Below, one piece after another: positions 3,378 through 54,638 of a DNA stretch of 64,000 nucleotides. Every line of letters begins with the position of its first letter. Position 1 is the first letter of the stretch. Made by a program: the position numbers and the translations under genes. The notes beneath the pieces are model-generated. The model ran no database searches. It had not been told where the DNA came from and saw nothing but the letters and a program-made list of their open reading frames with translations. Origin of the DNA: a bacterium (GTDB lineage Bacteria; Acidobacteriota; Aminicenantia; Aminicenantales; Aminicenantaceae); assembly GCA_018335295.1 (NCBI GenBank), contig JAGXKI010000006.1:4443-68442 (forward strand), written 5' to 3'.

Positions 3378-4547
3378 TCATCTATAAAATTCCTTCACTC
3401 GAGAAACAATATATTCCTGCTGTTTGGAAGACAATTCAGGATAGACAGGCAGGGCAAGAACTTCAGAGGAAGCCTTTTCCGATTCGGGAAAATCCCCTTC
3501 TCTATAACCTAAATAAGCAAAACACTCTTGGAGATGAAGGGGCCGAGGGTAATAGACCGCTGTGGAAATTCCTTTTTCTTTTAAATATTTCTTTAATTCA
3601 TCTCTTCTCTGGGCTCGAATGACATACTGATGATAAGTATGATAATGGTTTACCTTTCCATTTCTATACACAGCGGAAGGACATTGAATCAACCCTTTTT
3701 GGGGCAACCCTGATTCCCAAAATAGTTTTTTATAATGGCTCGCTTTCTCCTTTTTCATTTCCAGCCACCCATCCAGGTATTTTAATTTCACTCTGAGAAC
3801 TGCGGCCTGGAGGGAGTCCAAACGGAAATTTCCTCCCACAAACTTGTAATGATATTTATTCTCAGACCCATGAACTCTCAACAATCTGATCTGGGAAGCC
3901 AATTCTTTATCATCTGTAAGAACCATCCCTCCATCCCCATATCCTCCTAAATTTTTGGAGGGAAAAAAGGATAAAATCCCTAAATCACCTAAAGAACCTG
4001 CTTTTTTTATTTCACCCCGCATGGAATACTCAGCTCCCACAGCCTGAGCCGCATCTTCGATGATCTTCAACTGAAAGTCCTTTGCTAGAGAGGATAAAGT
4101 GTCCATCTCAGCGCATTGACCGTAAAGATGTACCGGAATAATAGCTCTGATTCGGGACTGTGAATTTTTTGATCTTTGGCTCTCAAGAAGTGACTCTAGT
4201 TTTTTAGGGTCCAAATTAAAGGTATTCCTCTGGATATCACAGAAAACAGGTTTGGCTCCTAGCCGGGCCACCGTTCCAGCAGTGGCAAAAAAAGTAAAAG
4301 GGGTAGTGATCACCTCATCATCTCTCCCCACTCCTAAGGCCATGAGAGAAACCAAAAGAGCATCAGACCCCGAAGAAACGCCCACAGCCGATCCGCTTCC
4401 ACAATAAGAAGCCATCTCTTTTTCCAAGGCTTCCACCTCAGGGCCCATTATGAAACGCTGAGTTTTCACCACATCCAAAATTTTTTTATCGATTTCTTTT
4501 TGGATGTTTTTGTATTGAGCCTTTAAATCAAGAAAAGGAATATTCAT
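3378..4547 (-). CDS. DegT/DnrJ/EryC1/StrS family PLP-dependent sugar aminotransferase
   Basis: IPFLDLKAQY, VSSGSDAL, PVHLYGQ, IEDAAQA, SFFPSKNLG(G)YGDGG, GGNFRLD. Confidence 0.93.
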   Translation of the reverse strand: MNIPFLDLKAQYKNIQKEIDKKILDVVKTQRFIMGPEVEALEKEMASYCGSGSAVGVSSGSDALLVSLMALGVGRDDEVITTPFTFFATAGTVARLGAKPVFCDIQRNTFNLDPKKLESLLESQRSKNSQSRIRAIIPVHLYGQCAEMDTLSSLAKDFQLKIIEDAAQAVGAEYSMRGEIKKAGSLGDLGILSFFPSKNLGGYGDGGMVLTDDKELASQIRLLRVHGSENKYHYKFVGGNFRLDSLQAAVLRVKLKYLDGWLEMKKEKASHYKKLFWESGLPQKGLIQCPSAVYRNGKVNHYHTYHQYVIRAQRRDELKKYLKEKGISTAVYYPRPLHLQECFAYLGYREGDFPESEKASSEVLALPVYPELSSKQQEYIVSRVKEFYR

Positions 4548-12564: not shown

Positions 12565-12641
<77 letters not shown>

Positions 12642-15433: not shown

Positions 15434-17026
15434 ATGACTTTTCCATTACTCAGCCTGATTACATTCCTTCCGTTGGCCGGGTCTGTCCTGCTCATCTTTA
15501 TACCCAAAGAAAAGAGAGCTTCTCTGCTCTATTTGGCGTTGATCTTTTCCCTGATAACTTTCATCGTTTCTTTGTTTCTCTTTTTCAATTTTAACGGCCA
15601 CACCGCAGACCCTCAGTTTGTGGAAAAGGCCCCATGGATCGGGTACGGGATAAACTATCATATAGGGATCGACGGGATCAGTTTATTTTTAATCCTTTTG
15701 ACCACATTCCTTTTTCCTATCGCCATCCTCTCCTCTTGGAATTACATTCAGAGTCGGGTTAAAGAATACCTGATTTTCATTTTGATGTTGGAAACAGGAA
15801 TCATAGGCGTGTTCGTTTCCCTCAATCTTTTCCTTTTCTATGTTTTCTGGGAAGCCATGCTAATCCCTATGTATTTCCTCATCGGAACCTGGGGAGGTCC
15901 CCGGCGAATCTACGCCACTCTGAAATTTGTTCTTTTCACCATGTTGGGGAGTCTTTTGATGCTGGTGGCTATTTTTTCTCTCTACTCCCTCTATTTCAAA
16001 GCCAGTGGCACTTATTCGTTCAATATCTTTGATTTCCATAACCTCATGCTCAGCTCCAATATGCAGATATGGTTGTTTCTCGCTTTTGCCCTGGCCTTCG
16101 CCATCAAAGTTCCCATGTTTCCCTTCCATACATGGCTGCCGGATGCCCACGTTCAGGCTCCCACAGCTGGTTCGGTGATTCTGGCTGCCGTCTTACTAAA
16201 AATGGGGGCTTACGGTTTCCTCCGCTTCGCTCTCCCCATCTTTCCTCAAGCGGTGGAAAAATTTCTTCCTCTTTTAGCCATATTGAGTCTTATCGGCATC
16301 ATTTACGGAGGGCTCATGGCTCTTATCCAAAAGGATGCCAAATCGCTTGTAGCTTACTCCAGTGTCAGCCATATGGGCCTCATTATGTTGGCTGTGTTTT
16401 CCCTAAACCTAGAATCCATCGAAGGAGCTATCTACCAGATGATCAACCATGGATTGAGCACAGGAGCTCTGTTCCTTTGTGTAGGGATTCTGTATGAAAG
16501 AGCTCACACCCGGCTCATCAAAGACTTCGGTGGTGTGAGCAAGCAAATGCCTGTGTTCGCCGCTTTCTTCTTGATCTGCATCCTCTCCTCAGTAGGTCTC
16601 CCCGGACTAAATGGTTTTGTAGGAGAAATCTTATGCATTTTTGGCGTATTTAAAGCCAACCAAGTTTTGGCCATCCTGGGGGTTTCCACAGTTATTCTAG
16701 CCGCAGGGTACCTGCTGTGGATGTACCAAAGAATCATGCACGGTCCTTTGGAGAAGAAAAAAATCCTTTCCTTTAAGGATATGAATATCCGAGAGATCAT
16801 CTATTTTGTGCCCATTATCATTATGATGTTCTGGTTGGGTATATATCCTCAGATGTTTTTACGAAAAATGGATGTCTCTGTCCAGCATCTTCTCAATCAA
16901 ATGGCCCAAAAAGAAAAAATCCTCACTCAAAACCCAAAGGATCCATCAATAAAAAATCAACTAATCCCAAAATCATTGGAAAAGGAACACCATAAAAACA
17001 AGAAAAAGGAAGAAAAGACCTTATGA
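15434..17026 (+). CDS. nuoM: NADH-quinone oxidoreductase subunit M
   Basis: FWEAMLIPMY, KVPMFPFHTWLPDAH, LLKMGAYG, HGLSTG, GLPGLNGFVGE. Confidence 0.95.
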   Translation: MTFPLLSLITFLPLAGSVLLIFIPKEKRASLLYLALIFSLITFIVSLFLFFNFNGHTADPQFVEKAPWIGYGINYHIGIDGISLFLILLTTFLFPIAILSSWNYIQSRVKEYLIFILMLETGIIGVFVSLNLFLFYVFWEAMLIPMYFLIGTWGGPRRIYATLKFVLFTMLGSLLMLVAIFSLYSLYFKASGTYSFNIFDFHNLMLSSNMQIWLFLAFALAFAIKVPMFPFHTWLPDAHVQAPTAGSVILAAVLLKMGAYGFLRFALPIFPQAVEKFLPLLAILSLIGIIYGGLMALIQKDAKSLVAYSSVSHMGLIMLAVFSLNLESIEGAIYQMINHGLSTGALFLCVGILYERAHTRLIKDFGGVSKQMPVFAAFFLICILSSVGLPGLNGFVGEILCIFGVFKANQVLAILGVSTVILAAGYLLWMYQRIMHGPLEKKKILSFKDMNIREIIYFVPIIIMMFWLGIYPQMFLRKMDVSVQHLLNQMAQKEKILTQNPKDPSIKNQLIPKSLEKEHHKNKKKEEKTL

Positions 17027-18459
17027 ATAGCTTTTGGGCGTTATCTCCTCTGCTGTTAGTGGTGTTGGCGGCTCTCGTGGTCCTCCTTCTCGAGGTTTTT
17101 CTCAAGAAAGAAACCAAAGATTATCTCGCTTACCTCTCATCCCTCTTTCTTGCGGGATGTGGAATCATCCTCATGATTTTTTGGGATAAGAACTATTCTT
17201 ATTTCGATGGAAATTTCCTTTTGGATAACCTCGCTTTGGTTTTTTCCCTTCTCCTCACTTTGGCCACAATTCTGGTTATCCTTATTTCCATTAAATACAT
17301 TTCCCTCCAGGGAGCCAATTACGGCGAATACTATGCCCTTCTCTTATTCGCCCTTTCGGGGATGTTGATCATGGTTTCTTCCCAGAGCCTCCTGATTATT
17401 TTTCTGGGATTGGAAATCCTTTCCATCTCCAGTTATTCCTTAGCCGGCTTGAGAAGAGAGAACCCCGAATCTTCGGAAGCTGCGATCAAATATTTTCTTT
17501 TGGGAAGCTTCGCCACAGCTTTCCTGGTATACGGATTGGCTTTGATGTATGGAAGCACCCATTCTTTAGAGATCTCTTCCATCATCCGTTTTTTGACCAC
17601 AGGAACCCATTTGAACCTCATGCTTTTGGTTGGTCTCGGTTTAATCATCATAGGATTTGCTTTCAAAATAGCCCTGGTTCCTTTCCACATGTGGACACCT
17701 GATGTTTACCAAGGTTCCCCCACTCCTGTCACAGCCTTTTTTTCCGTAGGGCCCAAAGTCGTGGGTTTTGCTGTGCTGTTAAGGATATTTCATTTTTATT
17801 GGGAAACCGCTTTTCACACTCAAACTCTGATGACAGCCTTATGGGTCATCTCTGTTCTCACCATGGTGGTGGGAAATCTAATTGCTCTCAGGCAGACCAA
17901 TGTCAAAAGAATTCTCGCTTACTCCAGCATTGCCCATGCTGGATATTTATTGATTGCCCTCATTGCTCAAGACCCTACCAGCTTGATTTTTTACCTTGCC
18001 GTATACCTTTTCATGAATATTGGAGCGTTTACCGCCGTAACCAGTTTGGGCCGGAAAGGGAAAGAATATGTGGAACTGAATGATTATTCGGGAATTGGGT
18101 TTAAATATCCATGGATTGGAGCCACCTTTGCTGTATTCCTTTTCTCTCTGGCCGGATTTCCACCTACAGGGGGGTTTTTGGCTAAATTTTTCGTTTTCGC
18201 TTCAGCAGTAAGAAAGGGCTTCACTCCCTTAGTTATCATAGCTGTGATAGCTAGTTTGATTTCAGTTTTTTATTACCTCCGGATCATCGTGACCATGTAC
18301 ATGAAAGAGCCTTCTCCGAGCATGCAAATCCTCACCCGAAACCCTGTGCTTTTTTCTGTCTTATTCCTCTGCCTTTATGGTGTGCTTCAGTTAGGGATTT
18401 ACCCGGGGAATGTCCTGGGTTTCATCCGCCAGGCTGTAGCCGCCATGCCCCTTCTTTAA
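17023..18459 (+). CDS. nuoN: NADH-quinone oxidoreductase subunit N
   Basis: EAAIKYFLLG, FKIALVPFHMWTPDVYQG, KRILAYSSIAHAGY, SLAGFPPTGGF. Confidence 0.95.
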   Translation: MNSFWALSPLLLVVLAALVVLLLEVFLKKETKDYLAYLSSLFLAGCGIILMIFWDKNYSYFDGNFLLDNLALVFSLLLTLATILVILISIKYISLQGANYGEYYALLLFALSGMLIMVSSQSLLIIFLGLEILSISSYSLAGLRRENPESSEAAIKYFLLGSFATAFLVYGLALMYGSTHSLEISSIIRFLTTGTHLNLMLLVGLGLIIIGFAFKIALVPFHMWTPDVYQGSPTPVTAFFSVGPKVVGFAVLLRIFHFYWETAFHTQTLMTALWVISVLTMVVGNLIALRQTNVKRILAYSSIAHAGYLLIALIAQDPTSLIFYLAVYLFMNIGAFTAVTSLGRKGKEYVELNDYSGIGFKYPWIGATFAVFLFSLAGFPPTGGFLAKFFVFASAVRKGFTPLVIIAVIASLISVFYYLRIIVTMYMKEPSPSMQILTRNPVLFSVLFLCLYGVLQLGIYPGNVLGFIRQAVAAMPLL

Positions 18460-18514
18460 TCCTTTTCTTTTTAGGGGGAGTTACTATCAGATTCTTAACT
18501 TTTTATGAGGATCA

Positions 18515-18898
18515 AAGGCTGGAGCAGGACGTAAGCCGAATTCTGTTCCCACCTTACAAGGCGGGGGTGGTTATTTCTCTGCCTCCATGATTGCTCAAGG
18601 AGTTTAGCGACCTACCCGCCCTCCTGAGACGGGCCATCTCTTTGAGGGACCATTGGGTCTTGCTCCGGATGGGGTTTACCCTGCCCCCGATGTCACCACC
18701 AGGGCGGTGAGCTCTTACCTCACCTTTTCACCCTTACCCTATGAAAATGATTTTTCATAAGGCGGTTTGTTTTCTGCGGCACTTTCCTCCGATTGCTCGG
18801 AGTCGCTGCTAGCGACCATCCTGCCCTGCGGAGTTCGGACTTTCCTCTCCTCCCTTCTTGGAAGAAGAAGGAGCAACCACCTCGCCTACTCCAGCCTT
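18515..18898 (-). ncRNA. rnpB: RNase P RNA, bacterial type A
   Basis: Minus strand contains GAGGAAAGTCCGAACTCC, AAGTGCCGCAGAAA, GGTAAGGGTGAAAAGGTGAGGTAAGAGCTCACCG, GGTAAACCCCATCCGGAGCAAG and ACAGAATTCGGCTTAC. P1 pairs AAGGCTGGAG (18898-18889) with CTCCAGCCTT (18524-18515). Confidence 0.96.
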
Positions 18899-20263
18899 GA
18901 TTTTGATTCCATACTGCTGTAATTTTTTGTACAAATTACTCCGTGGCGTATCCATTTCTCTGGCTGTTTGGGAAATATTCCAGTCATTCTTTTCCAATTT
19001 AGATAGTATAAATTCTTTCTCTGCCAGTTCCCTAAAATCTTTTAAATGACGAACTTTGCTTGTCTCCGGGAGATAAACATAACCCTCACCTTTGATTGGC
19101 TCAGGCAAATCTTTCCTTTTTATTATACTTGAGTTTGTCGTCACAATCAATCGTTCAACCGTATTCTTCAATTCCCGTACATTTCCCTTCCAGTGATATT
19201 TCATCATCGCTTTCACCGCTCCATCATCAAACTCTTTTTCCTTAAAATTATTCTCCTGGCAGAACATTCGGTTAAAATAATCTATAAGCAACGGAATGTC
19301 TTCTTTTTTTTCTCGTAAAGCCGGTGAATAAAGGGGAACGACGTTCAATCGATAATATAAATCCTCACGAAAATTTCTTTGTTCGATTTCCTCCTTTAAG
19401 TTCTTGTTAGTGGCGGTGAGAACTCGGACATCAACCTTGTTGATTTTACTTGACCCCACTTTTTGGACTTCCCCTTCTTCCAGAACTCTCAAAACTTTAG
19501 ATTGAGTTTTTAGACTCATATCTCCGACTTCATCTAAAAATAGAGTGGCTCCATCAGCTAATTCAAATTTTCCCACCTTATTTTCTGTCGCTCCAGTGAA
19601 AGCTCCTTTGACATGACCAAAAAGTTCACTTTCAATCAATTCATCAGGAATGGCCGCACAATTCACTTGAACAAACTTCTCTTTGAACCGATTACTGTGA
19701 CTATGAACAGCTCGAGCAATGAGTTCCTTTCCGGTCCCACTTTCTCCATAAATCAAAATTGTGGTGTTTGTGGGAGCCACTTTATAAATTTCTTCCCAAA
19801 GTCTTTTCATCAGAGGATGATTCCCGATGAGCTCATATTTTTTCTGGGCTTTTTTTCTCAGGTCTTGACATTCCTGTCGAAGCTTTTTCTGTTTCAATGC
19901 ATTGCGGATACACAATAAAACCTTATCTCTTTGAAGAGGTTTCTCCAAAAAATCATAAGCGCCCAGCTTGGTGGCTTCAACAGCCGTCTGGATGGTCCCA
20001 TGCCCGGATATCATTATGACTTCAGGAGAATAAGGTTTCTTTTTCAGCTCGGCTAAAATTTCCAAACCATCCTTTCCCGGAAGCTTAACATCGAGAAGCA
20101 CCAAATCCACACCCACCGTGTCTTCAATGACATCGAGGGCCTCTTCCCCATCCACGGCTTCGAGAAAATGATATCCCTCATACTCCAGAATCATCTTCAG
20201 GGATTTACGGATATTCTCTTCATCATCAACAACCAGCAAGCGCTCTTTTCGGTACTGATTCAT
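18809..20263 (-). CDS. Sigma-54-dependent response regulator (NtrC/NtrX-like: receiver, AAA+, Fis HTH)
   Basis: [57 protein letters not shown]; last 30 codons overlap rnpB. Confidence 0.93.
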
Positions 20264-20386
20264 GTTGGCTCCTTTCCTCCATAGAGGATTTTATTTTAGC
20301 ACAATTTCCCAGATTTAGTCACAAAACTCCCTCTTTGACCTCAAAATTGAGGATTCCTCTCCCATGGTTTCCTCCCAAAACACATC

Positions 20387-54545: not shown

Positions 54546-54638
54546 TGGCGGAGAGGGAGGGATTTGAACCCTCGGTGCAGCATCTAGCTGCACACACGCT
54601 TTCCAAGCGTGCTCCTTAATCCACTCGGACACCTCTCC
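54546..54638 (-). tRNA. tRNA-Ser (GGA), long variable arm
   Basis: Reverse complement GGAGAGGTGTCCGAGTGGATTAAGGAGCACGCTTGGAAAGCGTGTGTGCAGCTAGATGCTGCACCGAGGGTTCAAATCCCTCCCTCTCCGCCA. Confidence 0.96.

Follow-up and report, generated by a model that had tools for sequence, protein, structure and literature searches.

A Sigma-54-Dependent Response Regulator Gene That Ends Within the 5' Part of rnpB in Candidatus Aminicenantes

Introduction

How can an essential RNA be made, and from which promoter, when the first nucleotides of its gene are also the last codons of the protein gene before it? This question is raised by a stretch of 64,000 nucleotides of Aminicenantaceae DNA (positions 4,443 to 68,442 of contig JAGXKI010000006.1; hereafter the window), in which the ORF of a sigma-54-dependent response regulator has no stop codon after its helix-turn-helix (HTH) domain and continues into rnpB, the gene for RNase P RNA, on the same strand. 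We found no description in the open literature of a same-strand overlap of rnpB with an ORF, of their co-transcription, or of an intragenic rnpB promoter, which, given the incomplete coverage, is no proof of novelty. If confirmed, the arrangement would be a clear natural case in which an essential and universal ribozyme and a protein are encoded in part by the same DNA throughout a candidate phylum. Constraint could then be measured in either direction: a DNA-binding helix would have to accommodate promoter hexamers and rare codons, and the length of an RNA helix would obey a triplet rule. The locus would provide a test bed for the coexistence of ribosomes, RNA folding and RNA processing on one sequence.

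Results

Overlap of the Regulator ORF and rnpB

The regulator ORF (18809..20263, minus strand) encodes a protein of 484 amino acids, in which Pfam matches reveal a Response_reg domain (PF00072, residues 10-116, 1.1e-28), followed by Sigma54_activat (PF00158, residues 145-311, 8.9e-72), AAA_lid_14 (PF25601, residues 317-392, 9.5e-24) and HTH_8 (PF02954, residues 411-451, 1.3e-08). The translation also contains the GAFTGA sigma-54 contact loop, a signature of NtrC-family sigma-54 activators. With a receiver, an AAA+ sigma-54-interaction domain and a Fis-type C-terminal HTH, the predicted protein has the make-up of an NtrC-family bacterial enhancer-binding protein. The name putative NtrX derives solely from the automatic label that JGI gives to its homologues, and no histidine kinase adjoins the regulator in the synteny seen. 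A candidate promoter of the regulator gene, identified as a consensus match only (GTGACT-18-TAAAAT with an upstream TG; 20293..20322, minus strand), lies 30 nt before the ATG.

Rfam analysis of the window places RNaseP_bact_a (RF00010) at 18517..18892 on the minus strand, with a score of 295.7 bits against a gathering score of 100 (E 1e-95). The match is full-length (model positions 1-367 of 367) and without truncation, and the rnpB genes of relatives score 262-320 bits. The codon after Ile455 covaries with the 3' end of the RNA in approximately 35 relatives (AAG:CUU, ACG:CGU, GCG:CGC, AUG:CAU and AAA:UUU); codon 456 is thus paired, which sets the 5' end of P1 at 18898 and the end of its 3' strand at 18515. 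From first to last P1 pair, rnpB therefore measures 384 nt (18515..18898, minus strand), and it begins at the P1 5' strand without any spacer, just as the original prediction had it. With the conserved P4 motif GAGGAAAGUCC and a long-range P1 helix backed by covariation, the window RNA is, as judged from its sequence, a bacterial class-A RNase P RNA.

The stretch common to both genes measures 90 nt (18809..18898, minus strand) and comprises codons 456-484 and the stop on the protein side, and P1 through P4 to the next hairpin loop on the RNA side. The claim that the 5' end of rnpB encodes the last 30 codons of the regulator is borne out by this geometry and by its recurrence in relatives (see below). 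The HTH_8 match ends at residue 451 (codons 411-451; 18911..19033, minus strand), and only residues 452-455 (G-I-K-I) separate it from P1; codons 449-455, which directly precede P1, read CAG CAG TAT GGA ATC AAA ATC in the window (18899..18919, minus strand). On the same strand, the ORF then passes through the P1/P2 5' strand (18872..18898; codons 456-464, K A G V G E V V A), the 24-nt P3 hairpin (18848..18871; codons 465-472, P S S S K K G G) and the conserved P4 5' strand GAGGAAAGUCC (18837..18847), which is read as G-E-E-S-P. A further 25 nt of ORF separate P4 from the UAG stop codon (18809..18811). The hairpin whose loop contains this stop is the first one beyond P4/P5/P7 (Rfam model positions ~76-88) and is presumably P8 in the usual numbering.

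On the other side of rnpB, nuoM (15434-17026, plus strand) and nuoN (17023-18459, plus strand), which encode NADH dehydrogenase subunits and overlap by 4 nt (ATGA), converge on the RNA gene, with 55 nt between the nuoN stop and the rnpB 3' end. A U-rich tract follows the P1 3' strand in the window (18500-18514) and also in GC-rich relatives (e.g., GGCCGUUCUUUU); together, the long-range P1 helix and this tract may act as the rnpB terminator. Two mechanical ORFs within rnpB, one of 45 amino acids in another frame (18739-18876, minus strand) and one of 51 amino acids (18767-18922, plus strand), are almost certainly spurious and could be mis-called as genes. Rfam also identified two tRNA genes in the window, at 12568-12641 and 54549-54638 (both minus strand), the second of which, at 90 nt, is probably of the long-variable-arm type.

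Conservation of the Junction in Candidatus Aminicenantes

A profile of regulator residues 1-455 only, and therefore blind to the tail, was run against metagenome contigs. Among the 41 usable loci that it returned (67-80% identity), 38 continue directly from YGIKI into P1, free of indels and stop codons, while rnpB is displaced in the remaining three. A search with the tail-less protein gave the same picture, the junction being common to approximately 115 of 120 relatives. When the full-length protein was used as a query, 120 relatives (74-79% identity) were recovered, all with an in-frame tail of the form AGVGE[VA]VAPSS, 2-6 variable residues and GEESPNSxGQDGR, or ending at GEESPNS; this search is biased, since its score includes the tail, and as it held no variants with a stop in P3 (6 of 41 loci in the tail-blind DNA sample and ~16 of 120 in the tail-less protein search) it was left out of the reading-frame argument below. 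In every complete locus tested, Rfam finds a full rnpB that begins 7 nt after codon 455. The same junction is present in more than 150 independent assemblies (JGI, ENA, NCBI and Logan), and its recurrence therefore reflects neither chance nor assembly error. Furthermore, the GC content at third codon positions (GC3) of the regulator spans 0.18 to 0.97 over the clade, implying that the junction has survived very deep divergence.

The clade that carries the overlap is Candidatus Aminicenantes, a candidate phylum in the NCBI taxonomy, and its conserved synteny comprises two M16 peptidases, the regulator and rnpB, then nuoN and nuoM on the opposite strand. At the most basal overlapping loci (L090 and L091, 3273-3346), a tRNA gene that follows rnpB at a distance of 46 nt, in the same orientation, replaces nuoN, and the rnpB of these loci may be co-transcribed with its own tRNA substrate. 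At locus L093 (~2864), the match ends one base out of register on a very long tree branch, probably owing to a frameshift sequencing error. A genome-contig scan with the tail-less protein, which used 8-mers peculiar to the window, yielded only relatives of ~50% identity, and these were used as outgroups. The outgroup regulators (40-56% identity; Terriglobia, Balneolaceae and others) with few exceptions end 0-8 residues past the HTH, and rnpB is downstream of none of them.

On a quick neighbour-joining (NJ) tree of the regulator, the loci with a displaced rnpB are nested inside overlapping clades. On this topology, the same-strand overlap is ancestral, ancient and conserved in the clade. The original prediction had left room for a recent neutral loss of a stop codon, in which case relatives would have an upstream stop and a separate promoter; a comparison of relatives for an overlap as opposed to a stop after the HTH, which it had proposed, instead gives an overlap that is kept in 38 of 41 loci, and the recent-loss reading falls with it.

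Position of the Stop Codon and Nature of the Tail

Stop positions were counted over 41 overlapping loci with complete P1-P4, made up of the window, three look-ups and 37 loci from the scan. In 34 of these, the ORF ends with UAA or UAG in the hairpin loop, at a distance of 36 nt from the start of P4. One locus has its stop 18 nt after P4 (after P5), at a variable triplet that is unpaired; UAA or UAG is found at the hairpin-loop position in 34 of 35 loci. The remaining six stop before P4, in a bulge of the P3 3' strand, a state that arose at least four times on the tree. The 120 hits of the tail-less protein search comprise 88 loop stops, 12-13 stops at the variable triplet (J) and approximately 16 P3 stops. 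Depending on the class of stop, the tail measures 15-16, 24 or ~27-31 residues.

Since stops occur at three places, some of them before P4, everything after P3 is dispensable for the protein. The residue changes seen within the tail are first- and second-position substitutions that track RNA pairing (V/A/T, G/D and E/K). It follows that the RNA dictates the sequence of the tail, and the tail sequence itself is probably dispensable.

Length of P3 and the Reading Frame

P3 is a true helix in all loci, of 8-13 bp and with compensatory changes, and RNA structure gives no reason for its length to change in 3-nt steps. P3 measures 18, 21, 24 or 27 nt, all multiples of 3, in 39 of 41 loci. A length of 26 nt is confined to L061 and L064, and both have a UAG upstream of the shift, inside P3. 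On the regulator tree, P3 has changed in length at least nine times, with eight of the changes being multiples of 3 (P ~0.001 if one in three indels were a multiple of 3 by chance, a value that depends on the rough tree and that, like the hypergeometric P value given below, is optimistic because the loci are not phylogenetically independent). The minimal count from the distinct P3 lengths, three in-frame changes and one that is not, is not significant alone.

The frame in use leaves the RNA 36 nt after the start of P4, while the other two would remain open for a median of 121 and 134 nt, and for up to 379 nt. No long out-of-frame tail was found among the ~160 relatives of the tail-blind DNA and tail-less protein samples. 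The combination of P3 lengths in multiples of 3 and the absence of long out-of-frame tails leads us to infer that ribosomes translate into rnpB. These data suggest that the tail is really translated, with ribosomes entering rnpB on some transcripts, and that long read-through into rnpB is probably selected against. The prediction that ribosomes cross P1-P4 on read-through transcripts gains indirect support from the 3-nt periodicity of P3 length.

Promoter-Like Sites Upstream of rnpB

Hexamers were scored against the sigma-70 consensus, the rules of which were assumed to be valid for Aminicenantes. An unbiased scan of the last 300 nt before rnpB revealed a site whose -10 hexamer ends 28 nt before P1 (the -28 site). 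Of 41 loci, 35 match it at 9/12 or better, and in 32 it ranks first. In overlapping genes, this clade-wide candidate rnpB promoter has the form T[TC]GA[CT]A-17-TA[TC]AA[AG], matching 8-11 of 12 positions, and is located in codons 437-446. The window version (TGGATA-17-TACAAA; 18926..18954, minus strand) reaches 8/12 and was not flagged by the consensus scanner. Upstream of rnpB, the window's best match to a promoter is instead a site that ends 224 nt before P1 (the -224 site; TTGATT-17-TATAAT, 10/12; codons ~372-381; 19122..19150, minus strand). Sixteen loci reach 9/12 or better at this site, and all six that are weak at -28, the window among them, belong to this group (hypergeometric P ~0.002, without phylogenetic correction). 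The genomes that have the -224 site are mostly AT-rich, and it could simply reflect their codon usage. Every overlapping locus has at least one site scoring 9/12 or better.

In each hexamer of the -28 site, four of six positions are set by conserved amino acids (I-D-T and Y-K), so that part of its conservation comes free from the protein. Synonymous positions of its -35 hexamer show no enrichment; TAT445, in the -10 hexamer, is kept in 12 of 16 GC-rich loci against a background of 0.42. The statement that no convincing promoter lies directly before P1 holds for the window when considered by itself, with its 8/12 at -28, but gives a misleading picture of the clade, in which the hexamer pair is present in 35 of 41 loci; the window has in addition its 10/12 match at -224. 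No terminator was found between the regulator and rnpB in the window.

Codons 449-455 show a bias of their own. GC-rich relatives (L053-L095, GC3 0.75-0.97) carry CAA..GGT ATA AAR ATA before P1, often as TGGTATAAA. In 16 GC-rich loci, where the background frequency of A or T at third positions is 0.139, CAA450 is found in 11 of 16 (Gln background 0.14), GGT452 in 10 of 16 (0.023), ATA453 in 12 of 16 and ATA455 in 12 of 14 (both 0.023), and the synonymous sites neighbouring these codons vary freely. Where rnpB is displaced, codons 450-455 relax to CAG, GGC and ATC. The A/T-rich stretch could be an extended -10 promoter, an endonuclease or processing site, or a partner of the U-rich 3' trailer. 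The promoter reading, in which TGGTATAAA would be a second promoter starting exactly at P1, is plausible in 17 of 45 loci and absent in the window, L073 and L083; free-standing rnpB copies do not keep the element, and it was not adopted as the main promoter. Pairing of codons 450-455 with the trailer to extend P1 is possible, but shows no covariation. As an isolated anomaly, residue 417 (~19013-19015) has A or T at its third position in 12 of the 16 GC-rich loci, against the background of 0.139, with Asp GAT in 10 of 16.

Loci with a Displaced rnpB

The gene for RNase P RNA has moved away from the regulator by 94 nt in L079 and by 1-1.4 kb in L087 and L088, and the tree resolves these as two independent duplication events. 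A third locus without rnpB downstream of the regulator is represented by L134/L135, L134 not being on the tree. In L087 (1508-2293) and L088 (3094-3831), a secreted-looking protein of 245-261 amino acids with YNGPGxGDD-type repeats is inserted between the regulator and rnpB, an insertion that was accompanied by duplication of the regulator-rnpB junction.

In L079, L087 and L088, a decayed duplicate of the last ~100 nt of the regulator lies in front of the free rnpB. At the positions homologous to codons 437-439 and 445-446, these duplicates read TTGACA-17-TATAA[AG], while the spacer and the 24-29-nt leader have diverged by 25-50%, with indels. In the L079 duplicate, three of four hexamer mismatches have moved to the consensus and none away from it. 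The regulators of L079, L087/L088 and L134 keep a relic tail of 15-21 amino acids derived from P1-P3, and the first six relic codons of L079 and L087/L088 (T-A-G-V-G-E) differ only synonymously from real P1 (e.g., GGA to GGC and GCT to GCC). The relic tails hint weakly at a role at the protein level; GC pressure and a short elapsed time would give the same result.

Discussion

The reading that we consider likely is that intragenic promoters make rnpB, while the regulator mRNA reads into rnpB and is translated there, so that the length of P3 is held to 3-nt steps. The regulator gene has no stop codon of its own; rnpB begins at the codon after YGIKI, and the ORF ends at the first in-frame stop that the RNA happens to offer, be it the P3 bulge, the post-P5 triplet or the UAA/UAG of the hairpin loop. 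Most RNase P RNA would come from sigma-70-type promoters within regulator codons, the main one with a -35 hexamer from I437-D-T (T[TC]GA[CT]A), a -10 hexamer from Y445-K (TA[TC]AAR) and a start ~20 nt before P1. The second site, 224 nt upstream and the stronger one in the window, would perhaps give a leader of ~217 nt there. Such leaders of regulator codons would be trimmed or tolerated, and the U-rich tract after the P1 3' strand may aid termination. The regulator mRNA would start at its own upstream promoter (the candidate at 20293-20322), would be much rarer, and would read on into rnpB, with ribosomes translating through P1-P3 and usually P4. Because translation into rnpB would really happen on such transcripts, P3 could change in length only by 3 nt unless a stop lies upstream, a rule that would confine ribosomes to the frame with the earliest exit from the RNA.

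The original prediction had posed excision from the mRNA and an intragenic promoter as alternatives, and the comparative evidence favours the latter without proving it. If rnpB had no promoter and an endonuclease cut the regulator mRNA just before P1, the upstream fragment would be stop-less and would go to trans-translation. The missing spacer, the weak -28 site of the window and the lack of a terminator between the genes all agree with such a scheme, and in GC-rich relatives an endonuclease that cleaves single strands could act on the strongly constrained A/U-rich stretch (AUAAAGAUA) that directly precedes P1. We nevertheless regard excision as the sole source of RNase P RNA as unlikely. A pair of hexamers at fixed positions is conserved, no overlapping locus is without a site at 9/12 or better, and rnpB copies that were duplicated away carried the promoter segment with them, which became a consensus promoter, while the A/U-rich stretch was not kept. 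Furthermore, genes of sigma-54 activators are weakly expressed, and RNase P RNA is abundant. Transcripts from embedded promoters would still need 5' trimming, and processing may thus coexist with intragenic promoters rather than replace them. An artefact of assembly, sequencing or gene calling in the window is vanishingly improbable, given a junction found in more than 150 independent assemblies and a reading frame that is a mechanical fact.

Two further alternatives concern the tail and P3. The overlap could be a frozen accident, with the 3-nt pattern of P3 and the codon biases arising by chance or phylogenetic inertia, and several observations sit well with a neutral by-product: tail changes follow RNA covariation and not protein conservation, stops fall at three places with at least four gains of the P3 stop, and the unbiased DNA set holds only 4-5 distinct P3 lengths. 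This reading is rather doubtful, as it has to accommodate eight of nine length changes in multiples of 3, with the one exception behind a stop, the absence of long alternative-frame tails in ~160 sequences, where the frame in use exits earliest, and ATA and GGT codons that persist at a GC3 of 0.9 and relax to ATC and GGC once rnpB has moved. Conversely, the overlap could be kept for the protein, as a C-terminal extension that modulates, for instance, DNA binding or stability. Neither P1 nor the freely varying codon 456 contains a stop in more than 150 sequences, and the loci that lack rnpB downstream have retained relic tails, the first six codons of which have changed only synonymously in L079 and L087/L088; yet these loci are few, and such changes at third positions are expected from GC pressure alone. 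In addition, tail ends vary (15-16, 24 or ~27-31 residues), the tail is of low complexity and varies as RNA covariation predicts, and outgroup regulators work without it. A functional tail is therefore very unlikely in our estimation. Translation into an rnpB made from intragenic promoters remains our preferred reading.

A further, quite speculative possibility is that the two genes are not just compacted but coupled in their regulation, in that firing of the embedded rnpB promoter or promoters would occlude completion of the regulator mRNA, and maturation of the rnpB 5' end on read-through transcripts would leave stop-less, tmRNA-tagged regulator mRNAs. If this were true, the amount of the sigma-54 activator would be inverse to RNase P RNA synthesis, i.e., to growth rate, and the signal for processing or initiation in this switch would reside in the strongly constrained A/U-rich codons 449-455.

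The overlap also has consequences for annotation. Pipelines that forbid the overlap of a CDS and an ncRNA will truncate the regulator or call it partial or a pseudogene, while pipelines that are blind to ncRNA will report a 30-residue 'conserved C-terminal motif' (...GEESPNSxGQDGR) that is RNase P RNA read as protein. The regulator on a 4.43 Mb Aminicenantes chromosome (CP070825.1; L133, 2898-2996) is labelled 'partial' by NCBI because of a run of N inside rnpB, which rules out that the label of this protein (P0125) reflects a deliberate truncation at rnpB by the annotators. The run of N may mark a structured or repeated region that was hard to assemble, or one that was masked.

Comparison with Known Systems

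The rnpB gene of E. coli is free-standing and has its own intergenic promoter, with a primary transcript that starts at the mature 5' end. The gene described here likewise specifies a class-A RNA with all core helices and a U-rich tract after it; however, it has no intergenic promoter region, its transcripts would carry a leader of ~20 or ~217 nt of coding sequence, and its first 90 nt double as codons. Structured RNA and codons also occupy the same nucleotides in SgrS/SgrT and RNAIII/hld, where a regulatory RNA contains a small ORF and a single transcript fulfils both functions. In contrast, two genes overlap end to start here, and different transcripts probably serve the two roles. Consecutive genes that share bases, as a form of genome compaction, are familiar from ATGA-type overlaps such as that of nuoM and nuoN in the window, but those involve 1-4 nt between protein genes, whereas 90 nt are shared here and the secondary structure of the RNA partner constrains the codons.

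The closest parallel in expression is provided by MicL, an ncRNA of E. coli that is transcribed from within cutC and overlaps the 3' end of that ORF (PMC4102768). In both cases, the promoter is located (for rnpB, by prediction from sequence) inside a same-strand coding sequence, the end of an ORF and the RNA gene have DNA in common, and the mature RNA probably arises by trimming of a longer primary transcript. MicL is a stress-induced base-pairing sRNA, whereas the RNA here is an essential housekeeping ribozyme; the cutC stop codon lies upstream of mature MicL, whereas the regulator stops inside the structured core, past P4. Unlike the MicL arrangement, the overlap described here is conserved across a candidate phylum and is associated with reciprocal constraints. 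Hence, rnpB of Candidatus Aminicenantes resembles MicL and the type I 3'-end-derived RNAs in its probable mode of expression and stands outside their class, the RNA being RNase P RNA and not a base-pairing regulator.
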